Positions 2,220-62,872 are shown, numbered from the stretch's first letter. The stretch is DNA of 64,000 bases from Dehalococcoidia bacterium (GCA_965116305.1 OZ220673.1:1379362-1443361); one strand, 5' to 3'. Numbers and translations are program-made. The notes: generated from the letters alone by a model not told the origin.

Positions 2220-3782
2220 ATGCACGACGAGCCCTGGGCGCACGTCCACGACCCCGACGAGGAGCGCCTCGCCAAACTCACCATCGAACTGAACAACCCC
2301 GACCACGACTACTACCACTACGAGGTCATCGAACTCACGACGGTCGGCATCGACATCGGCTCCTCCACCTCGCACCTGATGTTCTCCAGCATCACGCTCC
2401 AGCGCGTGCAGGAGATGCACTCCAGCCGGTACGTCGTCGTGGACAGGCAGACGCTCTACAAGTCGCCCATCCTGCTCACGCCGTACACGCACGACAACCT
2501 CATCAACACGGAGCAGCTGGAGCGGTTCGTGGCCGAGTCGTACGCGGAAGCGGGATTCGAGCCGCAGGACGTGGACAGCGGCGCCATCATCCTCACGGGC
2601 GAGGCGATCAAGCGGCGCAACGCCCACGCGATAGCCGACATCTTCGCCGACCAAGCGGGCAAGTTCGTCTGCGCTTCCGCAGGCCACAACCTGGAGTCTG
2701 TGCTCGCAGCGAACGGGTCGGGCTCGGTTAAACTGTCGCGCAACCCGCGCCAGACCGTCTTGAACGTCGATATCGGGGGCGGCACGACGAAGTTCGCACT
2801 CGTGCAGGGCGGGCGCATCCAGCACACCGCCGCGCTCAACGTCGGCGGACGGCTCGTCGCCACGGAGGGCGACGGCGTCGTGACACGTATCGAGGACGCG
2901 GCGCACACCGCCGCCGACAGCATCGGCGTGCCGCTCGCGCTGGGCGAACGCCTGCCGGACGAGCACCGCACCGCCATCGCCGACGCACTCGCCGAGTGCC
3001 TGCTGGACGTGATACAGGGGCGCCCACGCTCCGAACTGACACAGGCGCTGCTGCTGACCGCCGACATGCCTCAGGACATGGCGTTCGAGGCGCTCGTCTT
3101 CTCCGGGGGCGTCTCCGAGTACGTCTACGACAACGAGACGCAGGAGTTCGGTGACCTCGCTGTGGACCTAGCCGCAGCCGTCCGTCGCAAGATGGCGGAG
3201 CACGCCCTGCCCGCGCCGGTGCAGCCCGCGGCGGAGCGCATCCGCGCCACGGTCATCGGTGCGTCGCAGTTCACCGTGCAGCTGAGCGGGAACACGCTCT
3301 CCATATCGGACCCGTCGCTCCTCCCCTACCGGAACGTACCGGTGCTCATCTCCCGGCTGCCGGAAGACCACGAGGTGCAGCCGGAGGAGGTCGCCGAACT
3401 CGTCGCGGAGGCGTTCGAGCGGCAGGACCTCGTGGAGGGTGAGCAGCAGGTCGCGCTCGCGTTCGAGTGGGACGGCCTGCCGCGCTACGCGCAGATACGG
3501 AAGATAGCGGACGGGATCGCGTCGGCGGTGCCGCGCTCGCTGGCGAACGGAGCACCGCTCATGCTCGTCTTCACCGGCGACTTTGCCAAACTGGTGGGCG
3601 ACACCATCACGAAGGACATGGGCATCGCGAACCCGGTCATCTCGATCGACAACCTCTTCCTGCAGGAGTTCGATTTCATCGACATCGGGGAGATGATCTA
3701 CCCGGCGCGCGTCGTGCCGGTGGTCGTGAAGTCGCTGCTCTTCCCGGAGATCGAGAAGCAGACCGCCGAGGTGCTGGACTAG
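2220..3782 (+). CDS. EutA-like ASKHA-fold ATPase (ethanolamine ammonia-lyase reactivase family homolog)
   Basis: ORF track 520 aa. Actin/Hsp70-like phosphate motifs GIDIGSSTSHLMF and NVDIGGGTTKFALV are present. The overall layout recalls the EutA family (my recognition, not a search). Confidence 0.6.
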   Translation: MHDEPWAHVHDPDEERLAKLTIELNNPDHDYYHYEVIELTTVGIDIGSSTSHLMFSSITLQRVQEMHSSRYVVVDRQTLYKSPILLTPYTHDNLINTEQLERFVAESYAEAGFEPQDVDSGAIILTGEAIKRRNAHAIADIFADQAGKFVCASAGHNLESVLAANGSGSVKLSRNPRQTVLNVDIGGGTTKFALVQGGRIQHTAALNVGGRLVATEGDGVVTRIEDAAHTAADSIGVPLALGERLPDEHRTAIADALAECLLDVIQGRPRSELTQALLLTADMPQDMAFEALVFSGGVSEYVYDNETQEFGDLAVDLAAAVRRKMAEHALPAPVQPAAERIRATVIGASQFTVQLSGNTLSISDPSLLPYRNVPVLISRLPEDHEVQPEEVAELVAEAFERQDLVEGEQQVALAFEWDGLPRYAQIRKIADGIASAVPRSLANGAPLMLVFTGDFAKLVGDTITKDMGIANPVISIDNLFLQEFDFIDIGEMIYPARVVPVVVKSLLFPEIEKQTAEVLD

Positions 3783-4560: not shown

Positions 4561-6588
4561 CTAGCTCAACCAGTCCAGGATGAACGGAGTCGGCCAGATG
4601 ACGGCGAGGGCAAAGTCGAAGAAAAGCAGGTTCAGGATGAGGATCGTAACTCCGGCGACGATACCCCCAATCACGCCCGTCTTGTTCTGCATCATCAGCA
4701 TCGGCCCGAGCGTGGCGATAACGACTGCGCCCCATTTCAGGCCCTCGTTCATCAGACCGGTCATCAGCAGCATGGTGAGCAGCATGACGAGGAAGATGAG
4801 GCCAGCCGAGCGGGCCCCTTCCATCCCACGGCTGCGGATGCCGATGTCCATGATCTCGCCCGTTTCGGCGCCCAGCCCCTCGCGGACGAACTGGATAGCG
4901 CAGAGTCCAAGGCCCATGATCGCGATGCTCATCGGGAACCACTTGGACAGGTAGGCGAAGGTCGTCGATTCCCAGATGGCGTACCCGAGAACGAGCATCA
5001 CCCCAATCGTGAAGATGTGCTCCTCACGCCAGCGCCAATGCCAGCGCCGGCGCGCCGGCGCGCCCGGGGCTTCGCCTGCGGGCGCACGCACGGGCATGTC
5101 CTCCATGCCGGGCGTGGCCATTCCCCCGCTCATGAATTTGGTGAAGAGGGCTCCGATGGCGATCGCCAGTACCAGTAACACGATGAAGAGCGGGCGCGTG
5201 AACGTGCCCTCCCAGCCGAGCAGGGCGACGGAGTCCGTGATGTTCTTCTCGATGATGGAGCCGAGGATGAACCCGATGAGCAGCGGTGGACGTGGCCAGC
5301 GGTAGCGCTTCATCAGCATGCCGAGCACCGCGCCGCCTAGCACGATGCCGATGGCGCTCACGTCCCGCGTATCCTGGAACGCCGCAAGGAGCGATATGGG
5401 GATGATGAGGAAGCCCAGCACCGGGTACGGAAGGAGGGTGAGGCGCGCCATCTGCCGCGTGAAGCCGAATCCGAGCAGCGTTACCATCAGATTCCCCAAC
5501 CCAAGGCTGACGATGATCATGATGGTGATGTCCGCGTGGTCCTCCAGCATCCGCGGGCCGGGAGCGATGCCGTAGGCCAGCATCGCAACGATGACGAACG
5601 CCCAAGCACGTCCGCCCGGTATGCCGAGCGCCAGTGTGGGGACCGCCTGCCCGGCCTCCTTGGAGTTCTGCGCCGACTCGGCGAAGAGCACGCCGTCCAG
5701 CGAACCCTTGCCAAATTGGCTCTTGTCCTTCGTCCAGAAGATGCCGAACGCGTAGGACATCCAGTCCACGACGCCGCTGCCGATGCCCGGTACCGCGCCG
5801 AGGAAGACGCCGAAGAGCGACTGCCGGATCGCCATCGGCCAGCGGGCGAACCCGTACCGTGCGCCTCTGTATATCTCGCGGTAGCTGATGCGGGCGTCCC
5901 TGGGAGCGAGCGGCTTCCGTGTCATCGTGAGGTCTATGATCTCCGGCAACGCGAAGACACCGATGGTCGTCGCGATGAGCGGGAAACCCGACCATTTCAG
6001 CCACTCCTGCTCAAAGGAGAACCGGAAGTCGAGGCCGAGCGGTCCGACGGCACTGAGCAGCATGCCGAAGATTGCAGCCGCGATGCCCTTGACCATCGCG
6101 CCGCCGCTCAGCGCCGCGACCATCGCGACGCCGAAGATCGCCATCGCGCCGATCTCGGCAAACCCGAACGCCAGCACAAAGGGCGTGATGACCGGGATGA
6201 TGATTGCGAGCGTGAACGCGCCCACCACCCCGCCTATTGCGGAAACGGCATAGACCGCCCCCAGGGTATGCGCCGCCTCGCCTCGTTGCGCGAGCTGGTT
6301 CCCTTCCAGAAAGGTGACCTGCGTCGCCCCGCCCGGCATACCCAGCAGGATGGCAGGGATGGAGTCGAGGGTGTTGTCGATGCCGGTCAAGGTCGCCAGC
6401 ATGACGAGGCCGATGACCGGGTCGTCCACCGATATGACGATGAACGGGATCATGATGGCCATCACCAGGGTTGCCGAAATGCCCGGGATCAGGGCGATCG
6501 GCACGGTGACGAACACGGCAACCAGAAAGCCGGTCCAGTAACCGGCAGTTCCCAGATAGGAGAGGCCTTCACCGAAGTCAGCTAGCAT
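4561..6588 (-). CDS. tripartite tricarboxylate transporter permease, TctA-like large subunit fused to a C-terminal TctB-like 4-TM module
   Basis: ORF track 675 aa. The N-terminal ~490 aa are colinear with the 510-aa TctA at 31134..32666 (e.g. DSIPAILLGMPGG vs EPIPSILIGVPGS). A charged linker (APARRRWHWRWREEH) follows, then ~160 aa of extra TM helices. Confidence 0.8.
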   Translation of the reverse strand: MLADFGEGLSYLGTAGYWTGFLVAVFVTVPIALIPGISATLVMAIMIPFIVISVDDPVIGLVMLATLTGIDNTLDSIPAILLGMPGGATQVTFLEGNQLAQRGEAAHTLGAVYAVSAIGGVVGAFTLAIIIPVITPFVLAFGFAEIGAMAIFGVAMVAALSGGAMVKGIAAAIFGMLLSAVGPLGLDFRFSFEQEWLKWSGFPLIATTIGVFALPEIIDLTMTRKPLAPRDARISYREIYRGARYGFARWPMAIRQSLFGVFLGAVPGIGSGVVDWMSYAFGIFWTKDKSQFGKGSLDGVLFAESAQNSKEAGQAVPTLALGIPGGRAWAFVIVAMLAYGIAPGPRMLEDHADITIMIIVSLGLGNLMVTLLGFGFTRQMARLTLLPYPVLGFLIIPISLLAAFQDTRDVSAIGIVLGGAVLGMLMKRYRWPRPPLLIGFILGSIIEKNITDSVALLGWEGTFTRPLFIVLLVLAIAIGALFTKFMSGGMATPGMEDMPVRAPAGEAPGAPARRRWHWRWREEHIFTIGVMLVLGYAIWESTTFAYLSKWFPMSIAIMGLGLCAIQFVREGLGAETGEIMDIGIRSRGMEGARSAGLIFLVMLLTMLLMTGLMNEGLKWGAVVIATLGPMLMMQNKTGVIGGIVAGVTILILNLLFFDFALAVIWPTPFILDWLS

Positions 6589-6723
6589 CGATATCTCCCA
6601 TCAGGCCGTTGAAACTGTCCCCAGCCGCGCCCACACGGTCAGCCGGAGAGCGTGCTCCTTGGCCTGTGTAGAAAGAGAGGCGGCGCGGATGTCCGCGCCG
6701 CCCCTTGTTGCAGGTGATTCCTA

Positions 6724-8091
6724 CTACCCGCTTACGTACTGGGAGAAGTACTTCGGCAGGAGTCGAGCAGCCTGCTCATCAACGACGGCCTTGGAGCCCT
6801 CGAACAGGTCCTCGTTCTCCTTCGTCGCCGCCTTCAACTCGGCACGGCCTATCCAGCCGGGCTCCTCGCCCGCCACGCCGGCGTACTTCTGGATGAGCTC
6901 TGCATCGGTGGTGAGCGCTTCCTCGAACGCAGCGGAGAGCGCGTCCGCGATGTGCTCCGGCGTGCCCGGCGGCAGCCAGAGTGCCTTCGACGCGTAGTTC
7001 GTCGGTCCGATGAGAGAGTTGAATATGTGTGTCTGGTCGGCGTTCAGGTGGTCGCGGACGTCGCCACAGTGCGGCTCGGTCTGTGCGTTGCCACGCAGTG
7101 TGCCGGGGCCCATGCCTGCCATCAGGCGCATCAGACCGCTCGGGATCCAGTCCGGGTTCTCAACCGGGAACCGGTACCAGAGGCTGGAGCGGACCGTGCT
7201 GTTGATGTCGCCGCGTGCCCACATCAGCCGAACCGCGTTGGTGTCGACCGTCGTGAAGCCGAGGTAGGTGAACGGAACGTCCAACTGCTCCGATGCGTAG
7301 ACGGTCGCAAGCATCGTCGGGTTGCCTTCGGCGATGTCGGAGAGCTCGTCCGCGAGGATGAATTCGCCGTGGGCGCCGCCGCCCGTGCTGCTCTGGCCGG
7401 AGTAGTCCCAGAGACAGCTCTCAGCCGCACTCGCGCCGAGGTTGCCAACCGGGTCGTACAGCATCCAGCCGCGGGTCGGGTCGATCGTGGAACCGAGCGG
7501 CTCGAACGTGCTGCGCTTGATGAACTGCGTGCTCTCCGAGAAGCCGAACGCCAACTGCGGCGTGCTGTTCCAGGAGATGTAGGTCCCGTCCTTGGGCGCC
7601 TGTGTCGCGGAGTAGATGTACTCCAGCGGCTTGTTCGGCTGGTTGGTGAACACCACCCGCGGGTTGCCGGGGATGTACTTGCTCATGAAGGCAGACATCA
7701 CGCGGCCCTGGGTGTCGGTGCCGCCACCAGGCGAGGAGTTCGCGACGATGCGGACCGTCTTGCCGCTGAAGTAATCAGCAGCGTTGAAGCCGGGCGGAGG
7801 CGTCGGGGTTGCCGTCGGCTGAGGCACCGGAGTAGCCGTCGGGGCCGGTGCAGGCGCCGTCGAGCCGCTGTCCGCCGGTACCGGAGTCGGCGTTGGGTCA
7901 TCCTTCTCCATCATCGCCTCAGGGGTAGGAGTCGGATCCTCCTTTTCCATCATCGCCTCAGGCGTAGGCGTCGCGGTCGGTTCCGGTCGCGGCGTGGGTG
8001 TGGGGTCTTCGCCTCCACACGCAGCGATAACGGCCACCGTGGCCACTGCGGTGATGACTCCGACGAGCCATCGGTTCATTCGAGTCCGCAT
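6724..8091 (-). CDS. TctC/Bug-family periplasmic substrate-binding lipoprotein with Pro/Thr-rich linker
   Basis: ORF track 6724..8118. I prefer the start MRTRMNRW at 8091, which has GGGAGGA 5 nt upstream. Lipobox is VIAAC. The linker carries PTPT and EAMMEK repeats. The core GKTVRIVANSSPGGGTDTQGRV matches the TctC-type G-G-G-x-D motif. Confidence 0.8.
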   Translation of the reverse strand: MRTRMNRWLVGVITAVATVAVIAACGGEDPTPTPRPEPTATPTPEAMMEKEDPTPTPEAMMEKDDPTPTPVPADSGSTAPAPAPTATPVPQPTATPTPPPGFNAADYFSGKTVRIVANSSPGGGTDTQGRVMSAFMSKYIPGNPRVVFTNQPNKPLEYIYSATQAPKDGTYISWNSTPQLAFGFSESTQFIKRSTFEPLGSTIDPTRGWMLYDPVGNLGASAAESCLWDYSGQSSTGGGAHGEFILADELSDIAEGNPTMLATVYASEQLDVPFTYLGFTTVDTNAVRLMWARGDINSTVRSSLWYRFPVENPDWIPSGLMRLMAGMGPGTLRGNAQTEPHCGDVRDHLNADQTHIFNSLIGPTNYASKALWLPPGTPEHIADALSAAFEEALTTDAELIQKYAGVAGEEPGWIGRAELKAATKENEDLFEGSKAVVDEQAARLLPKYFSQYVSG

Positions 8092-45327: not shown

Positions 45328-45558
45328 ATGACCACCGTGAACGTCCACGAAGCGAAGTCCCAACTCTCCCGCCTGCTCGCGCAGGTCGAGGCCGGCGAGG
45401 AAGTCACCATCGCCCGCAACGGCAAGCCCGTAGCCAAGCTGGTGAGCTGTCAGCCCAAGCCCAAACGGCAGCCCGATACTCTAAAGGGAATCATCAGCAT
45501 CGACGAGCGCTTCTTCGAGCCACTGCCGGAGGAGGAGTTGGAGCTCTGGGGCGTTTGA
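45328..45558 (+). CDS. Phd/YefM-type (prevent-host-death family) antitoxin
   Basis: ORF track 76 aa. MTTVNVHEAKSQLSRLLAQVEAGEEVTIARNGKPVAKLV is the canonical Phd-family N-terminus. Confidence 0.85.
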   Translation: MTTVNVHEAKSQLSRLLAQVEAGEEVTIARNGKPVAKLVSCQPKPKRQPDTLKGIISIDERFFEPLPEEELELWGV

Positions 45559-45561
45559 TCG

Positions 45562-45948
45562 TTGCGGCTCCTGCTCGATACGCACGCTTTCATCTGGTGG
45601 TTCAGCGACAGCGCCAGGTTGTCGCGACCCGCACACCGCCTGATCGCTGATGATACGAACGATGTCTTCGTGAGTGCAGCCACAGCTTGGGAGATCGCGA
45701 CGAAGCACCGCTTGGGTAAGTTGCAGGACGCCGAGGCACTCGCCCTCGACATCCCTGGCGCTATCGTGCGGCAGAAGTTTGAGGAGTTACCTGTGACGGT
45801 GGGAGACGGCGTTCGGGCCGGGGAACTTCCCGGCCCGCTCCGTGACCCGTTCGACCGCATGCTCATCGCGCAGGCGCTGGCACACGACCTTATCGTCGTC
45901 TCGAACGAGACGCTCTTCGACCGCTACGGCGTGCGCCGCCTCTGGTAA
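45562..45948 (+). CDS. PIN-domain toxin (VapC-like)
   Basis: ORF track 128 aa (TTG start). Motifs are LLLDTHAFIWW, AWEIATK and DPFDRMLIAQA. Confidence 0.85.
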   Translation: MRLLLDTHAFIWWFSDSARLSRPAHRLIADDTNDVFVSAATAWEIATKHRLGKLQDAEALALDIPGAIVRQKFEELPVTVGDGVRAGELPGPLRDPFDRMLIAQALAHDLIVVSNETLFDRYGVRRLW

Positions 45949-56224: not shown

Positions 56225-56310
56225 CGGTTTCCTCCCCGCGCCCCTGCGCGCGCACTCTTTTGGAACGCAATATCCTCCCAGCCCGCGCAGCCGTCAATCC
56301 TGCGAGGACC

Positions 56311-56472
56311 GTCATTCCCGCGCCAGCGGAGTGGGGATTGTCATTTCGAGCGGAGCGCAGCGAAGTCGAGAAATCTCTCGGGTTGCCTGGTGTAGAGGCA
56401 TCCCTTCGTGGGTGCCCTTCCCCACCTCTCCCCGAGGGAGAGGTCGACGCGCTTGCGCGGCGGGTGAGGGTT
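56311..56472. repeat. mosaic of REP-like elements (types A, C, D, B)
   Basis: Type A is GTCATTCCCGCGCCAGCGG. Type C is TGTCATTTCGAGCGGAGCGCAGCGAAGTCGAGAAATCTCTCGGG. Type D is GTAGAGGCATCCCTTCGTGGGTGCCC. Type B is CACCTCTCCCCGAGGGAGAGGTCGACGCGCTTGCGCGGCGGGTGAGGGT. The same element types recur at 60.0-60.4 and 62.5-62.8 kb. Confidence 0.8.
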
Positions 56473-56611: not shown

Positions 56612-57997
56612 ATGGTCTCGATCATCAGGTCACGCGGTGACCGGTCGCTTCGCAGCCTGGTGAACCTCGACGAGGGGCTCATCGCACGTGAGATCTACGT
56701 CAACGAGGGCATCTACCAGCAGGAGCTGGAGCAGATATTCGCCCGCGCCTGGCTCTTCCTCGGCCACGAGAGCCAGGTCCCCAACCCCGGCGACTTCGTC
56801 ATCTCCCGCATGGGCGAGGAGGAGATTATCGTCACGCGCGACAGGAAGAACGTCATCCACGCGTTCCTCAACACCTGCCGCCACCGCGGCATGAAGGTCT
56901 GCCGCTACGACGACGGCAACACCCTCGTCTTCACCTGCCCCTTCCACGGCTGGTCCTACGACACCGACGGCAGGCTCGTCGGCGTTCCCCACCACAAGCA
57001 GGCCTACCACGAGGAGCTCGACAAGGGTAAGTGGGGGCTGTTCGAGGTCGCCCAGCTCGCCAACTACTACGGCTCCCTCTGGGCGACGTGGGACCCCAAG
57101 GCCCCGTCGTTCGAGGACTACCTCGGCGTCTACGCCCCCACCATCAAGTGGTGCTTCGAGAGCAGCGGCGGCGAGGACAACGGCGTCGAGCTCTTCAACC
57201 CCGCCACCAAGTGGTACATCCCCACCAACTGGAAGTTCCCCGGCTTCTCGTTCGACGGCGACAGCGCCCACGGCGCGATGACCCACCGCTCCGTCAACGT
57301 CGCCGCCATCGGCCCGCAGGGTGACCTGCAGGGCGGCAGCCGCAGCGGCATGCGGGCCCCCTTCCCGTCCACCTCCTACGAGATGCAGCTGCCTGAGCTC
57401 GGCCACGGCGGCCACAACTTCATGTTCGAGCAGCCCGGCACGCCGGAGTACATGGACACCTGGCAGACCGAGCCGCCCGAGGTCGACGCCTACTACCGCG
57501 AGCAGCGGGAGAAGAAGCAGGCCCGCTACAAGGACACCTACCTCCACGCGGGCAACGGCGGCACCGCCCTCGTCTGGCCCAACGTCAACATCCAGCCCCA
57601 CCGCATCCTCGTCTGGCACCCGCACGGAGTCGGCGTCACCGAGTCCTGGCGGCAGTACCCCGTCGACAAGGATGCCCCCAAGGTCGTCAAAGACGCCCAG
57701 CGGCGCTACATGATGCGCTACGGCGGGCCCACCGGCCTCACCGAGTCCGACGACATGGAGAACTGGAACTACGCCTTCCCCGCCAGCCTCGGCACCATCG
57801 CCCAGCGCCTCCCCTACAACTTCCAGATGGGCCTGGGACACGACTTCACGGACGAGCGCTTCCCCGGAATGACGTTCACCTTCCGCATCGCCGAGGCCAA
57901 CCAGCGCGCGCGTCTCCGCCGGTGGATCGAGTTCATGGAAGCCTCCAGCTGGGACGACATCTACCCCGTCCACCCCAGGAAGAACACGGAGCGCTGA
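56612..57997 (+). CDS. aromatic ring-hydroxylating dioxygenase alpha subunit (classical alpha/beta type)
   Basis: ORF track 461 aa, AGGAGGA upstream. Rieske motif is CRHRGMKV...CPFHGW. Fe motif is DSAHGAMTH. Confidence 0.9.
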   Translation: MVSIIRSRGDRSLRSLVNLDEGLIAREIYVNEGIYQQELEQIFARAWLFLGHESQVPNPGDFVISRMGEEEIIVTRDRKNVIHAFLNTCRHRGMKVCRYDDGNTLVFTCPFHGWSYDTDGRLVGVPHHKQAYHEELDKGKWGLFEVAQLANYYGSLWATWDPKAPSFEDYLGVYAPTIKWCFESSGGEDNGVELFNPATKWYIPTNWKFPGFSFDGDSAHGAMTHRSVNVAAIGPQGDLQGGSRSGMRAPFPSTSYEMQLPELGHGGHNFMFEQPGTPEYMDTWQTEPPEVDAYYREQREKKQARYKDTYLHAGNGGTALVWPNVNIQPHRILVWHPHGVGVTESWRQYPVDKDAPKVVKDAQRRYMMRYGGPTGLTESDDMENWNYAFPASLGTIAQRLPYNFQMGLGHDFTDERFPGMTFTFRIAEANQRARLRRWIEFMEASSWDDIYPVHPRKNTER

Positions 57998-58019: not shown

Positions 58020-58685
58020 GTGGTCTCGTCCTCGTCAAACAACAGGCTCGTCGGCGTCGGCTTCATCGTCCTCGGCGTCCTCTTCCTGCTGCCGCTCATC
58101 AGCAGCTTCGAGTTCTCCTTCAGCGACTGGTGGCCGCTCTTCCTCATCCTCATGGGGTTCGGCAGCCTCTCCAAGGGCAGCACGAAGGGCGGCCTCATCG
58201 TCATCGCCATCGGCGTGGTGTTCCTGCTGAGCAACCTGGACATCCTGAGCATCAGCTTCTGGCTGCTCTGGCCGTTCGCGCTCATCGCCGTCGGCGTGGC
58301 CATCCTCTTCGGGCACTCCCGCTCCCGCCGGTCCGCGAACGACGCGCCTCCGGCGGGCGACGACCTCGCCGTCTCCGCACTCTTCTCGGGCAATGAGCAG
58401 CGCATCGACAGCCAGCGCTTCAACGGCGGCAACGTCTCGGTCACCTTCGGCGGCGCGGAGATAGACCTGCGCGGCGCCGCCATGGACGGGAACGCCGCCA
58501 CCGTCAACGTCAACGCGGTATTCGGCGGCGTCAAGCTCCAGGTCCCGCCCGACTGGGCCGTCGAGGTCCGCGCCGATTCGACCTTCGGCGGCGTCGAGAA
58601 GAAGCGCCCCGACCCGGCTGAACCGAAAGCCACGCTCACCGTCACCGGCTCATGCCTCTTCGGCGGCATCGAGATCACGTCCTGA
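58020..58685 (+). CDS. LiaF/YvqF-like membrane protein (DUF2154-type C-terminal domain)
   Basis: ORF track 221 aa, GTG start with AAGGAG upstream. Four N-terminal TM helices are followed by FGGAEIDLRGAAMDGNAATVNVNAVFGGVKLQVPPDWAVEV...FGGVEKK. Confidence 0.7.
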   Translation: MVSSSSNNRLVGVGFIVLGVLFLLPLISSFEFSFSDWWPLFLILMGFGSLSKGSTKGGLIVIAIGVVFLLSNLDILSISFWLLWPFALIAVGVAILFGHSRSRRSANDAPPAGDDLAVSALFSGNEQRIDSQRFNGGNVSVTFGGAEIDLRGAAMDGNAATVNVNAVFGGVKLQVPPDWAVEVRADSTFGGVEKKRPDPAEPKATLTVTGSCLFGGIEITS

Positions 58686-58704: not shown

Positions 58705-59556
58705 ATGACGACCGGACGACCGGACCAGAAGGGCGAAGAGCTCATCAACGTCAACAACACCGTCATCCTCACCAACCTGCCCATCGGGCAGCAGATCAAG
58801 CTCCGCGACGGCTCCACCGCCGAGGTCACCGCCAACCCGCGCGACGGCGGATGGGTCCGCGCGCGCTTCCTCGAATCGACCGTCAACCCGGCCCTCGTCG
58901 GGAACGAGGAGATGGTCTTCGCCACCGACGTCACCGGCCTCATCGACACCGCCGGACTGACGCCGTTCGCCCCCGCCGACACCGGCCCCGAGCGCTCCGC
59001 CGGCCTCGCCCGCCCCGTCACCATCACCTCCCCGGAGCAGACCCTCGAACGCCTCCTCTTCGAGCGCGAGATCGAGCGCTTCCTCTACCGCGAGGCCGAA
59101 CTCCTCGACGACCGCCGCTTCAACGACTGGATCGAGCTCGTCGCCGAGGACATCCACTACCACATGCCCGTCCGCCGCAACGTCAAGTTCGGCGAGCAGC
59201 ACCGCGAGAACACCGACCCCGAGTCCGAGATCTCCTGGTTCGACGAGGGCAAGCGCACGCTCGCGGGCCGCGTCCGCCAGATCAACACCGGACTCCACTG
59301 GGCCGAGGAGCCGTTCTCCCGCGTCCGCCACGTCATCAGCAACATCCACGTCGGCGAACTGCAGGGCGACGAGGTGCCCGTCCGCAGCAACTTCTTCGTC
59401 TGGACGAACCGCCTGCACGACGAGGTCAACGTCTTCGTCGGCACACGCCACGACGTGCTCCGCCGCGACCCGGACACCGGCTGGAAGATCGCCCGCCGCC
59501 TCATCCTGCTGGACCAGAACGTCCTGCTCTCCAAGGTCATCACGACCTTCTTCTAG
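58705..59556 (+). CDS. ring-hydroxylating dioxygenase beta subunit (NTF2/SnoaL-like) with ~110-aa N-terminal extension
   Basis: ORF track 283 aa, AGGAGGA 5 nt upstream of the ATG. The C-terminal ~170 aa (ERFLYREAELLDDRRFNDWIELVAEDIHYHMP...) are beta-subunit-like. The N-terminus is of unknown type but has high-GC3 coding character. Confidence 0.8.
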   Translation: MTTGRPDQKGEELINVNNTVILTNLPIGQQIKLRDGSTAEVTANPRDGGWVRARFLESTVNPALVGNEEMVFATDVTGLIDTAGLTPFAPADTGPERSAGLARPVTITSPEQTLERLLFEREIERFLYREAELLDDRRFNDWIELVAEDIHYHMPVRRNVKFGEQHRENTDPESEISWFDEGKRTLAGRVRQINTGLHWAEEPFSRVRHVISNIHVGELQGDEVPVRSNFFVWTNRLHDEVNVFVGTRHDVLRRDPDTGWKIARRLILLDQNVLLSKVITTFF

Positions 59557-59565
59557 GAGCCCCTA

Positions 59566-59612
59566 CCCGTCATTCCCGCACCTCTACCGTCATTCCCGCG
59601 AAAGCGGGAATC
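59566..59612. repeat. REP-like type A elements (one half copy plus the hairpin GTCATTCCCGCGaaaGCGGGAATC)
   Basis: Read directly. Same family as 42900..42919 and 60167..60190. Confidence 0.75.
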
Positions 59613-59691
59613 TCGCCCCCCTCAGGAGGGCCAAGCTAATGCACATCCTCCCCATCCACAAACCCCATAGCGGCGAACCCCGGTAGCGCCC

Positions 59692-60012
59692 ATGGCCCTC
59701 ACCGCGGAATGGCGTATCTTCGGCGAGTTCGACGTCGTCCTCGTCGTCGAGGACGGCATCGTGCGCGAGGCGATGACCGCGGACGCCGCCCTCCTCCACG
59801 ACTTCCTCACCTCCATGAGCGGCCTCTACTCCTGGCGCAGCGACCACGCCGTCGAGGGTGAGAAGGAGGGCCCGGAGCCGTGGGGCGCGCTCGTCATCTC
59901 CCGCGCCGAGACCGGCGAGATCGTCGACATGGACCCGCAACGCTTCTGGACCGGCGTCCACATCTGGTTCCGCTCCCGCGGCGTCGACTACGACACCCCC
60001 ATCCCCGTCTGA
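59692..60012 (+). CDS. hypothetical protein
   Basis: ORF track 106 aa with strong GC3 coding bias but no clear RBS. No family recognised. Confidence 0.45.
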   Translation: MALTAEWRIFGEFDVVLVVEDGIVREAMTADAALLHDFLTSMSGLYSWRSDHAVEGEKEGPEPWGALVISRAETGEIVDMDPQRFWTGVHIWFRSRGVDYDTPIPV

Positions 60013-60429
60013 TCCGCGCTTCAGCGCGCGGTGAGGGCCACCTCCGTCGTTCCTGCGGAGGCCCGCGCTTTAGCGCGCAACCTCGCCTCCCACCTCTCCC
60101 CGGGGGAGAGGTCGACGCGCTTGCCGCGGCGGGTGAGGGTGGACCGGACGTGGTGCGCCAGCACCGGTCATTCCCGCACCGGCGGGAATCCAGAGTGACC
60201 TGCCCGGTCACGCGGTGGGGCGGGCGTATGGGGCGGATGTGTCATTCCGAGCGAAGCCGCCGACACAGTCGGTGGCGCAGCCGAGGAATCTCTCGGGGGC
60301 TTGACTCCCTCGCCCCCTGAGAGAGGGTGCCGCGCTTGCCGCGGCGAGTGAGGGTCCCTGATGTAGGGGCATCCCTTGTGGGTGCCTTTGCCTGTCGTTC
60401 CTGCGTAGGCAGGAACTTCGCAGCCTTGC
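60013..60429. repeat. dense mosaic of REP-like hairpin elements (left border of a lower-GC islet)
   Basis: The order read is: type B at 60091..60142, type A at 60167..60190, type C at 60239..60296, a type B variant at 60305..60356, type D at 60362..60388, and type E (GTTCCTGCgtagGCAGGAAC) at 60396..60415. Confidence 0.8.
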
Positions 60430-61005
60430 TTACTGCCAGCCCCTCGTGCAATCTCCGCTACGGTTGTCTGCAAACAAGCCGAGGCTGTCATCCGGCCACG
60501 GAGTCTTGTCCTTCCTCTGAAATGCCCGCTGGACTTTCGGCATGACCCTTCGCGCTACCCTCCTCCGAGGCCACTTGTAGACGGCTGCAAACGAGTCTCT
60601 CTCGCCGATGTTGCGGGCCAGCCGTTCCGGAACCAAGTGGGGGTTGCGGTCCTGCGGCAACTTGTCATAGTCCGGGTGGGTAGGCAGAAGCAGGCCCACC
60701 AGTCCACATCGCTCGTTGTTGGGCCTGTCGATGATACTAGCCGAGATTTCCCAGTCCACATGCTTGCGCTGCCACGTGCACGGGCCAATCAGGACAATGG
60801 TGACCACGGCATCCGCAATGTGGTCATCCCTGATTCTGCGGCGTATCTCATCCAACGGGAGGTTCTCGTCGTGAATGTCTCCCGGGCTGACGGACTTGTC
60901 GATTACTTTGCTGTCCAACGCTTGGACCAGTCGGCGCTTATACTCCTCGTCGTCTGCGTGATAGTAGCTGACAAAAACCTTGTGCTTGGGTAGGGCATCA
61001 GCCAT
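60430..61005 (-). CDS. TIR-like domain protein (MTH538/DUF1863, ThsB-like)
   Basis: C-terminal 191 aa of ORF 60430..61356. Start is MADALPKHKVFVSYYHADDEEYKRRLVQAL. It contains VTIVLIGPCTWQRKHVDWEISASI, with the W-x-EI glutamate position typical of TIR-like domains. G+C is lower than in surrounding genes. Confidence 0.65.
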   Translation of the reverse strand: MADALPKHKVFVSYYHADDEEYKRRLVQALDSKVIDKSVSPGDIHDENLPLDEIRRRIRDDHIADAVVTIVLIGPCTWQRKHVDWEISASIIDRPNNERCGLVGLLLPTHPDYDKLPQDRNPHLVPERLARNIGERDSFAAVYKWPRRRVARRVMPKVQRAFQRKDKTPWPDDSLGLFADNRSGDCTRGWQ

Positions 61006-61016
61006 AGGTGTTGCCC

Positions 61017-61457
61017 CTACAAGACCCAGCCCCACGAAACCAGAACGGTAGTGGCGACGGGTAGATAGAACGGCAATATGGATACCGAGCCGAAGAGACA
61101 TCGCAGCACGAGGCGTGACCCCATGCCCGTCGGGGCTATCTTGTAGACCTCGCTTAGTTCCAGTTTCTCCTCGTACAGCTTGGCAACGAACGTGTTCTGA
61201 GACTTGATGAACGCTCGCTCCAGCGCGAGGTAGTAGGAGTCCAGGAACAGGAATAGTAGGGTTGGAATCAGAGCAATCAGCGCGTGTCGGGGTTCCCCTG
61301 TGCGCGCGACCAGCACGAGCACCGCAGCCACAAGGGTGACGCACCACACCTTGCACGAGCGGCTGTTCTCCGCCATCCTCTGAATCACACCCTGCATGAT
61401 GGTGAGATGGGTCTGTACGGCGGACGAGTCAACGCTGAGTTCACCGTTGTTGGCCAT
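61017..61457 (-). CDS. small integral membrane protein (TM hairpin + cytoplasmic helix + C-terminal hydrophobic segment), first gene of the operon with the TIR-like gene
   Basis: ORF track 146 aa, GGAGGA 4 nt upstream of the ATG. TM1 is VWCVTLVAAVLVLVA, TM2 is ALIALIPTLLFLFLDSYYLA, and the C-terminal segment is LFGSVSILPFYLPVATTVLVSWGWVL. The stop lies 11 nt before the TIR-like start. Confidence 0.6.
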   Translation of the reverse strand: MANNGELSVDSSAVQTHLTIMQGVIQRMAENSRSCKVWCVTLVAAVLVLVARTGEPRHALIALIPTLLFLFLDSYYLALERAFIKSQNTFVAKLYEEKLELSEVYKIAPTGMGSRLVLRCLFGSVSILPFYLPVATTVLVSWGWVL

Positions 61458-61637
61458 CTATCCTCCACTCGCATTATCTCCGCCGGCAGCCTCCTCTGTC
61501 TCCCTGCCAGTGTCAGAATCCCCCTCCCGTCACACTTGTGACATCTGCCCGTTGCGCGAGCGAGCCACCCTTCCCTACCCTGTTCTGGACGGCCCAGCGC
61601 CCTCTTGCGCGATGCCTCAGCAGGCCCCTGCCGGAAA

Positions 61638-61670
61638 CTGTCGGATTGCTGTCGGATTGCTGTCGGATAT
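61638..61670. repeat. three tandem 11-bp repeats (CTGTCGGATTG x2 + CTGTCGGATAT) in the divergent promoter region
   Basis: Read directly. The palindrome GTCACActtGTGAC lies about 100 nt to the left. Confidence 0.7.
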
Positions 61671-61740
61671 TGGCGGGTGCACTGTAGGGCAAGCGGGAGG
61701 GACTGACGGGTGAAGAAACCAGGAAACAGGAGTGAATGGC

Positions 61741-62148
61741 ATGGAGAACCAGCAGAATCCGACAGCTACGAAAAAAGTGGCCCTCACCCCCAGGCAGACG
61801 CTTGCCCTGCCCTATATCGCCGCGACCGCTTCCCTCTCCGCCGGGGCGAGGGCCGCTCGCATACACCGCTCCACGCTCCAGCAGTGGATGACCGACCCTG
61901 ACTTCAGGGCCGAGTTGGAGCGCCTGCGCAAGGACGCCGAGTCGCTCGCCCGCGTCGAGTTGCAGGGCCTCGTGCTCAAGAGCATCAGTACCCTGGCTGA
62001 GCTCCTGGAAGACCCTGACCCGAAGGTCAGGGCCACTGCGGTGCGCGCCGCTCTCTCCAATGCCCTCAAGGTCGGAGAGAACCGCGAACTCCGGCAGCAG
62101 TTGGAGATGATCGAGACAACCCAGGTGATGATGAGGCAGCAGCGATGA
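61741..62148 (+). CDS. HTH-containing protein, phage/mobile-element-like (homeodomain-like N-terminus, coiled C-terminus)
   Basis: ORF track 61732..62148. I prefer ATG at 61741 (CAGGAG 8 nt upstream). LSAGARAARIHRSTLQQWMTDPDF resembles small-terminase or phBC6A51-type HTH proteins. This is my impression only. Confidence 0.5.
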   Translation: MENQQNPTATKKVALTPRQTLALPYIAATASLSAGARAARIHRSTLQQWMTDPDFRAELERLRKDAESLARVELQGLVLKSISTLAELLEDPDPKVRATAVRAALSNALKVGENRELRQQLEMIETTQVMMRQQR

Positions 62149-62519
62149 TGAACGCCGTCCGCTCGCTCCGTAACTACTACGGTTGCCTTCTGGTGCAGGC
62201 GAAACTCAGACCCATCGCCGAGGACTACGTCCTGCGCTGGGTGGACGCCGTGGAGCGCGGCGATTACCCGCCCGACATCGCAGACCTCTTCGAGGCGGCG
62301 GGAGAGGCGCGCGTCCCCGTGCTCAGCCCCGTCCCCATCGACTCCTACCTCCGTCAGTGCTTCAGGGCCGGACGCATCCCGGACGACACCCGCATCGTGC
62401 AGGCCATCGCGCACGCCTACGCGGAGGGCGATCTGATGAAGGTGGGCGAAACGTGCCACTGCCCCGCGCGGCGTCCACTCTTCCAGCGCCCCGCCCGCAC
62501 CGGCTTCCGGGGTGACTAA
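62145..62519 (+). CDS. hypothetical protein
   Basis: ORF track 124 aa, ATGATG overlap with the preceding gene. No family recognised. Confidence 0.4.
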   Translation: MMNAVRSLRNYYGCLLVQAKLRPIAEDYVLRWVDAVERGDYPPDIADLFEAAGEARVPVLSPVPIDSYLRQCFRAGRIPDDTRIVQAIAHAYAEGDLMKVGETCHCPARRPLFQRPARTGFRGD

Positions 62520-62533
62520 GGTGAGCACAAGGA

Positions 62534-62830
62534 CCGTCATTCCAGCGAACGCTGGGATCCAGCGCGCGGAGCGCCCATATCCCCCTCGCCCTCTGGGAGA
62601 GGGCAACGCGCTTCAGCGCGTGGGTGAGGGTGACCTGCGGGATGGCGGGCTGCCGGCTCCCCTCTCCCCGGGGGAGAAGTCGTCGCGCGACAGCGCGTGG
62701 GTGAGGGTGACCTGCAGGATGGCGCCCTGCCTGCCTCCACCTCTCCCTGGGGAAGAGGTCGCCGCGCAGCGGCGGGTGAGGGTTGACGGCCCTACCCGTT
62801 GCCCCCTCTCCCGCAGCGCGGGTAGGATAG
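62534..62830. repeat. REP-like mosaic with ~77-bp tandem organisation (right border of the islet)
   Basis: A type A variant (GTCATTCCAGCGAACGCTGGGATCC) is followed by three type B copies at about 62581, 62657 and 62735. Each ends in GGGTGAGGGT. The first two are followed by GACCTGC(G/A)GGATGGCG. Confidence 0.8.
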
Positions 62831-62872
62831 CCCCATCCCCCTACGCACACCCAGTCCCCGAGGAGGACCAAC

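Follow-up and report, generated by a model that had tools for sequence, protein, structure and literature searches.

Type V Thoeris and its closest relatives

The known diversity of Thoeris anti-phage systems has been extended by a preprint of December 2025 in which types V through XI are defined (Yirmiya et al., 2025; bioRxiv 10.64898/2025.12.03.692087). Type V consists of ThsB and ThsF, the latter annotated as DUF2270 (PF10028) and possessing three membrane-spanning helices, and in an AlphaFold3 model ThsF assembles into a ring whose protomers have positively charged pockets between them (Yirmiya et al., 2025). The type V system of Bacillus thuringiensis DAR 81934 provides phage defence: its ThsB produces the cyclic ADP-ribose (cADPR) isomer 3'cADPR in a phage-dependent manner, addition of 3'cADPR is toxic to cells with the system, and defence is inhibited by the sponge protein Tad1 (Yirmiya et al., 2025). 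The subject of the present analysis is a gene pair at positions 60430-61457 of a 64,000-nucleotide stretch of DNA from a Dehalococcoidia bacterium (GCA_965116305.1, OZ220673.1:1379362-1443361; the whole stretch is referred to below as the window), which probably constitutes a minimal type V Thoeris anti-phage system of two genes.

Both genes lie on the minus strand. Gene 1, a thsF-like effector gene (61017-61457), begins with ATG and encodes 146 amino acids, while gene 2, thsB (60430-61005), encodes a 191-amino-acid TIR-like protein with the N-terminus MADALPKHKVFVSYYHADDEEYKRRLVQAL; an operon junction of 11 nucleotides (61006-61016, minus strand) separates the two open reading frames (ORFs), as first annotated. 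Like type V Thoeris, the pair forms a two-gene operon in which a ThsB-type TIR protein accompanies a small effector with three transmembrane (TM) segments and no soluble domain, and this effector shares homology with the proteins that accompany homologs of the validated B. thuringiensis ThsB. It differs in its effector-first, TIR-second gene order and in belonging to a Chloroflexota (Dehalococcoidia) clade known from sequence, whereas the validated type V systems are from Bacillus.

The pair can also be compared with several other described or catalogued systems. Adjacent genes matching both components of PDC-M50, a PADLOC candidate system, are present: each of the four PDC-M50A models recognises gene 1 (lowest E 1.9e-25) and gene 2 matches PDC-M50B (E 2.3e-7), and loci related to the window pair lie inside restriction-modification operons. 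The PDC systems of PADLOC (PADLOC-DB v2.0.0) are unpublished candidates whose prediction relied on their repeated occurrence within defence loci that were already known, and a literature search on 'PDC-M50' found no paper; unlike type V, PDC-M50 is an unvalidated candidate without a proposed mechanism, and gene 2 fits the generic PADLOC ThsB models slightly better (E 2.9e-8). Type II Thoeris, in which ThsB is combined with a TM-Macro protein and a histidine-ADP-ribose (His-ADPR) signal, shares with the window pair a TIR protein and a membrane effector presumed to kill by membrane disruption, but has a different TIR family; assignment to type II was rejected since gene 1 has no Macro match in Pfam, nor any other soluble sensor domain. 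Type VI (ThsB with ThsG/DUF6650, signalling through 2'cADPR) resembles the pair in its TIR protein, gene 2 sharing the KHVDWEIS motif and TIR cluster of type VI ThsBs and being 41% identical to an experimentally validated one from a Gammaproteobacteria scaffold. Type VI was likewise rejected, gene 1 having no match to DUF6650 (PF20355) although gene 2 clusters with type VI ThsBs. The SLATT effectors of type VII Thoeris and of cyclic oligonucleotide-based antiphage signalling systems (CBASS) are, like gene 1, small membrane proteins, and are thought to oligomerise on binding a nucleotide signal; assignment to them was rejected as well, on grounds returned to below. As for the three-gene Rst_2TM_1TM_TIR system, which the initial annotation had also brought into consideration, gene content alone speaks against it: the operon contains two genes and no third, the next ORFs being divergent or located beyond repetitive extragenic palindromic (REP) repeats.

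The system is therefore a real one that has already been catalogued, as PDC-M50, and described, as the type V Thoeris of Yirmiya et al. (2025), and the suggestion in the initial annotation that the pair might be undescribed does not hold. What the locus offers is an example, from an uncultured member of the Dehalococcoidia, of a very recently defined Thoeris type, and no new kind of immunity. The remaining points of interest are the poor coverage of the ThsF family in databases, the frequency of the TIR-ThsF-TIR architecture, and the question of which signal is used.

Ties to the defined class

Two lines of evidence connect gene 1 to ThsF. The first is found in Table S1 of Yirmiya et al. (2025), where the TIR protein of row 2620551309 (an IMG identifier), labelled "DUF2270 - Type V, cluster 2741407742", shares 81% identity with gene 2. 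The same TIR protein is 100% identical to the one encoded downstream of a gene 1 homolog in a related locus designated L070, while the row above it, also labelled "DUF2270 - Type V", gives the TIR protein encoded upstream of that homolog, again at 100% identity. The L070 gene located between the two, the product of which is 60% identical to gene 1, must therefore be the ThsF of those authors. The second line starts from a tblastn search, in which the type V ThsB validated in B. thuringiensis identifies homologs on plasmids; the genes immediately downstream of these homologs in Terribacillus, Clostridium botulinum and Klebsiella are relatives of gene 1. Such a partner is 28% identical to gene 1 by BLASTP (E 3e-18), the partners align to the gene 1 family with 99.5% probability using hhalign (E 1e-22), and comparison of the two profiles gives 99.6% probability (E 6e-24). 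The tie to the validated B. thuringiensis ThsF is an indirect one, by way of the neighbours of ThsB homologs and of Table S1.

The assignment is also consistent with the properties of each protein. The gene 1 product is a small effector with three predicted TM helices and no other domain, as judged from hydropathy, an AlphaFold2 model and Pfam. The identification of gene 2 as a ThsB-type TIR protein, made initially from sequence motifs, is borne out by a match to the Pfam family ThsB_TIR (PF08937; E 1.1e-16, 61.5 bits against a gathering score of 21.2) and by the PADLOC ThsB models, while its match to the Pfam family TIR_2 is sub-threshold. The TIR domain extends from approximately residue 8 to residue 112, and the putative catalytic glutamate is E86, situated within the WEI element (HVDWEIS) that had been singled out at the start. 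Of 59 partner TIR proteins that are 42-86% identical to gene 2, at least 95% keep this residue, and it is invariant in 41 close homologs. Conservation continues past the Pfam match into a C-terminal extension of about 80 residues (P126, R128, W145, P146, R164, P171, N181, G189). The AlphaFold2 model of this protein, built from a shallow alignment of sequences 70-91% identical, is poor (predicted local distance difference test score, pLDDT, 45.8), and a phmmer search of PDB sequences returned only marginal matches to the TIR domain of plant RPS4 (E 0.06).

The membrane effector and its family

Kyte-Doolittle hydropathy analysis of gene 1 identifies hydrophobic segments at approximately residues 37-53, 60-79 and 121-146, with an amphipathic N-terminal helix preceding them and a polar stretch of about 40 residues between the second and third. 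The resulting layout, an N-terminal amphipathic helix followed by a TM1-TM2 hairpin, a cytoplasmic helix and a C-terminal TM3, is the one originally proposed, and agrees with the helices (residues 12-53, 56-95 and 114-145) of an AlphaFold2 model built from an alignment of 40 homologs. The proposed lack of a recognisable soluble ligand-binding domain is likewise upheld, in that neither Pfam nor NCBIfam scans found any domain in gene 1. Among 95 diverse relatives, R27 and K36 are invariant, and both are located on the N-terminal helix, which is cytoplasmic in the predicted topology; a further set of residues is nearly invariant (Q22, I25, N31, S32, W38, A45, P65, D73, Y76, L77, E80, S124, Y131).

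The family to which gene 1 belongs is extensive. A word-indexed search yielded 1554 homologs, and an exhaustive profile search 3655 clusters at 50% identity (E up to 1e-3), nearly all of them stand-alone proteins of 130-160 amino acids that are either unnamed or annotated as "hypothetical protein". The ThsF effector family is thus much larger than domain databases suggest, being missed by Pfam, by NCBIfam and by the source annotations. No match to gene 1 was found in GenBank phages by tblastn, though PHROG families match both genes, gene 1 matching phrog_19896 with an E value of 1.7e-19. A housekeeping role for the family, raised at the outset as a finding that would tell against a defence function, is at odds with its patchy distribution, its presence on plasmids in several phyla, and its varied genomic contexts.

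Linkage and genomic context

With each species represented by a single genome, a scan provided 80 related loci (L001-L080), most of them in Dehalococcoidia/Chloroflexota metagenome-assembled genomes (MAGs), together with single Opitutales, Gemmatimonadota and Bryobacterales MAGs. In 75 of the 80, the gene 1 homolog has a co-oriented TIR gene as its immediate neighbour. The order observed in the window, TM-TIR, is the commonest architecture (38/80), followed by TIR-TM-TIR (34/80) and TIR-TM (3/80), and the tight spacing of thsF and thsB, from -19 to about +50 nucleotides, is seen again in most of the loci. TM-TIR adjacency is also encountered on plasmids of Vibrio, Nostoc and Klebsiella, and the linkage occurs likewise on Terribacillus and Clostridium plasmids. 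On one Klebsiella plasmid (NZ_AP021974.1; locus L084, positions 2770-3039), a thsF homolog beside a type V-like ThsB has been cut to 89 amino acids by insertion of an IS3 transposase, so that this conjugative plasmid carries a system that has been inactivated.

The TIR partners themselves are diverse. Two clades resemble gene 2, at approximately 70-86% and 42-51% identity, and two further ThsB types, one of 164 amino acids (the 'RTFFSFHY' type) and one of 122, are encoded upstream of the gene 1 homolog; one or the other constitutes the second, upstream ThsB of the 34 TIR-TM-TIR loci (approximately positions 5480-6000 of each locus). In four loci (L029, L056, L060 and L061; approximately positions 6450-7570, or 7030-7655 in L061), thsF is followed by a 158-amino-acid ThsB that matches PADLOC PDLC00418 (E 1e-65). 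In the first three of these, a gene of about 205 codons for an Nmad2 protein (PF18753, E 1e-66) comes after ThsB, with hsdS located later in L029, and thsF, the PDLC00418-type ThsB and Nmad2 may together make up a type V variant of three genes, in which a nucleotide-modification-associated protein is the accessory component. Elsewhere the partner is a protein combining DUF1883 with a canonical TIR domain (L064, 6463-7260; PADLOC PDC-S66, E 2e-70), or a Hypoth_Ymh (PF09509) protein with no TIR gene downstream of thsF (L062, 6578-7375), and in both instances the gene downstream of thsF is directly upstream of hsdS. In a further locus (L027), TIR genes are found 1.3-2.6 kb downstream of thsF and are not adjacent to it.

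Among the 150 closest of the remaining neighbours are 35 additional ThsB_TIR, 20 HsdS, 7 N6_Mtase, 6 HsdM_N, 5 AbiEii and 3 PIN proteins, indicating that many copies of the pair are situated within type I restriction-modification operons or defence islands. Several Dehalococcoidia MAGs contain two copies of the cassette at different positions (L013/L015, L017/L021, L027/L034), and a tblastx comparison of the window flanks with the 80 related loci found no synteny. Together with the occurrence on plasmids, these data show the pair to behave as a mobile cassette of two or three genes. Both of the tests that the initial annotation had set for the pair, co-occurrence across genomes and location in defence islands, have accordingly come out in its favour, and its reading of the locus as a minimal Thoeris-like module, made up of a ThsB-type TIR protein and a small membrane-only effector, is sustained by the TIR match, by the conservation of E86 and by linkage in 75 of 80 loci.

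Several observations nevertheless weigh against assignment of the window pair to type V or against extending to it what is known of that type. Neither gene 1 nor the L070 protein matches PF10028 (DUF2270) at E values up to 10, the same model does not detect the Bacillota homologs of gene 1, and only 12 of the 95 relatives show PF10028 matches, all of them sub-threshold (best E 0.0012). The 'DUF2270' label is therefore not reproducible in this clade with the current Pfam hidden Markov model, and annotation pipelines that depend on PF10028 will miss most type V systems. The AlphaFold2 model of the gene 1 monomer is of moderate confidence (pLDDT 69.5), and a Foldseek search of PDB with this model found nothing below an E value of 2. 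The window copy lacks the restriction-modification context that is common among related loci. Defence by type V has been demonstrated only for Bacillus systems, a Vibrio cholerae system having failed, and one of the validated systems, that of Bacillus sp. 1NLA3E, is not activated by 3'cADPR (Yirmiya et al., 2025). Lastly, the TIR cluster that includes gene 2 (2741407742) also holds the TIR proteins of type VI and type VIII systems, so that the signal at the window locus may not be 3'cADPR.

Proposed mechanism and the nature of the signal

By analogy with the characterised systems, we infer each of the following steps, as well as the nature of the signal at the window locus. ThsB would remain inactive until phage infection is sensed, whereupon its TIR domain, by means of E86, would convert nicotinamide adenine dinucleotide (NAD+) into a cADPR isomer. 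This signal would bind to an oligomeric ring of ThsF, in cytoplasmic pockets that bear positive charge and are probably formed by the N-terminal amphipathic helix, with its invariant R27 and K36, and by the helix following TM2. The three-TM ThsF would then disrupt or permeabilise the membrane, such that growth stops before phage progeny are released, an outcome corresponding to abortive infection.

That the signal is diffusible is suggested by the linkage data. A near-constant membrane protein has partners from at least five TIR families, often with two TIR genes per operon (counted were the two clades resembling gene 2, the 164- and 122-amino-acid ThsBs, the Nmad2-associated ThsB and the DUF1883-TIR protein), and such swapping of unrelated TIR families around one effector would be expected of a diffusible signal rather than of a specific protein contact. 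With its one constant effector and many exchanged TIR proteins, the family provides a compact test case for how a three-helix membrane protein devoid of other domains reads a nucleotide signal.

Which signal is read at the window locus is a separate matter. Since the validated 1NLA3E system is not activated by 3'cADPR, the signal of the B. thuringiensis system cannot simply be transferred to the Dehalococcoidia pair. Type VI systems use 2'cADPR, to which the Gammaproteobacteria-scaffold system responds specifically, while type VIII systems use canonical cADPR (Yirmiya et al., 2025). Because cluster 2741407742 holds a 2'cADPR-type relative of gene 2, and because 34 of the 80 loci have thsF sandwiched between two unrelated ThsBs, the ThsF family might have diversified in ligand specificity, with the Chloroflexota clade answering 2'cADPR or another TIR product in place of 3'cADPR; this extension of the type V model is possible but must be regarded as doubtful. 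Were it true, a membrane-only protein of 146 amino acids would constitute a minimal, re-tunable receptor for cADPR isomers, and the indifference of a validated type V system to 3'cADPR would be accounted for.

Alternative explanations

Three other explanations of the pair can be put forward, each of them less likely than type V signalling. The best of them, though improbable, is that the roles are reversed and no signalling takes place: the membrane protein would act as sensor or anchor, responding for example to phage-induced perturbation of the membrane or envelope, and the TIR protein would be the effector, acting through bulk depletion of NAD+ in the manner of the TIR effectors of CBASS, Pycsar and prokaryotic Argonaute (pAgo) systems. 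TIR domains can indeed be NADase effectors (Yirmiya et al., 2025), gene 1 has no recognisable ligand-binding domain with which to receive a signal, and the conserved C-terminal extension of about 80 residues in the TIR protein could be a regulatory or interaction module. A specific protein-protein relay is nonetheless hard to fit to a single conserved membrane protein that occurs with at least five unrelated TIR families, often with two at once, and in type V itself ThsB alone makes 3'cADPR in a phage-dependent manner and the added molecule is toxic with the B. thuringiensis system (Yirmiya et al., 2025).

Lower still is the likelihood that the window copy is an inactive remnant, a decaying pair, or a cassette with some role other than defence, such as an addiction module of a mobile element. 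Consistent with this explanation is the setting of the pair, which is isolated from other defence genes, lies amid REP-like repeats and stands beside weakly phage-like ORFs; moreover, the second, upstream ThsB present in 34 of the 80 loci is absent, a search of the window for a remnant of it having found none. Against it, both ORFs are full length in comparison with their homologs and retain the residues invariant in their families, R27, K36 and E86 included, and no architecture is more frequent among related loci than the two-gene order seen here. Candidate signals for expression are present as well. A GGAGG sequence located 5 nucleotides upstream of the gene 1 ATG constitutes a good Shine-Dalgarno element, and a sigma-70-like promoter match, GAGACA-18-GATAAT (61473-61502, minus strand), lies 16 nucleotides upstream of the thsF start codon, although this is a match to consensus only and, with two such sites found against 0.5 expected in shuffled sequence, is weak evidence for a thsF promoter.

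Finally, that gene 1 is a pore-forming protein of the SLATT type (like ThsH of type VII Thoeris) or another known effector, and not ThsF, is the least probable of the three, for although the general architecture of gene 1, in which a TM hairpin comes after an N-terminal helix, is reminiscent of SLATT proteins, and one of the 95 relatives has a sub-threshold match to SLATT_6 (E 0.0077), the window protein has no SLATT match in Pfam at E values up to 1, DUF2270 is the commonest weak Pfam match among the relatives (12/95), and the direct link to 'DUF2270 - Type V' entries favours ThsF.

Local surroundings of the pair

The thsF-thsB pair is the lowest-G+C kilobase of the window, having a G+C content of 58.3% as compared with 66.1% for the window as a whole (standard deviation 2.1% in windows of 1028 nucleotides) and falling in the lowest 0.16% of such windows. 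The low-G+C island that contains it extends from 60250 to 61650 (approximately 58% against 66%). Likewise, G+C at third codon positions is 73-76% in the two genes and 95-96% in adjacent genes. Low G+C content, low third-position G+C and the lack of synteny with related loci together point to a horizontally acquired cassette, and acquisition of the pair by horizontal transfer is likely.

Families of REP-like palindromic repeats are found on both sides of the pair, at approximately 59560-60420 and 62530-62840. In the initial annotation, the pair was described as lower in G+C than its surroundings, bracketed by REP repeats and divergent from phage-like helix-turn-helix (HTH) genes; the first two features are confirmed, and the third stands only in part. 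Of the two plus-strand ORFs divergent from thsF, that at 61732-62148 is weakly similar to small terminase subunits in PHROG (E 2e-6), its HEAT/HTH matches in Pfam being sub-threshold, while that at 62145-62519 has no match. The two ORFs (61732-62519) may be a remnant of the mobile element that carried the cassette in. An Rfam scan of the window identified no RNA family.

The REP-like repeats occupy intergenic regions of the window more generally, with another cluster at approximately 56290-56470 and scattered copies elsewhere. They are exemplified by GTCATTCCCGC..GCGGGAAT and CCTCTCCCCGGGGGAGAGG..GCGGGTGAGGGT, and, with no more than two mismatches allowed, 36 copies of the GTCATTCCCGC motif can be counted in the window. 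In one related locus (L054), an ORF resembling IS200/REP-associated tyrosine transposases (RAYT), as judged by eye, lies directly after the thsF homolog.

A second low-G+C patch (approximately 59%) is present at 45328-45948 on the plus strand, and consists of a gene pair that looks like a toxin-antitoxin module: by visual inspection of the translations, the ORF at 45328-45558 has the appearance of a Phd/YefM-type antitoxin (MTTVNVHEAKSQLSRLL...) and that at 45562-45948 the appearance of a PIN/VapC-type toxin (MRLLLDTHAFIWW...). Closer to the thsF-thsB pair, a plus-strand gene at 58020-58685 encodes a LiaF-like membrane protein (Pfam LiaF-TM and LiaF-like_C) and is located between genes that, by eye, appear to encode the alpha (56612-57997) and beta (58705-59556) subunits of a Rieske ring-hydroxylating dioxygenase.

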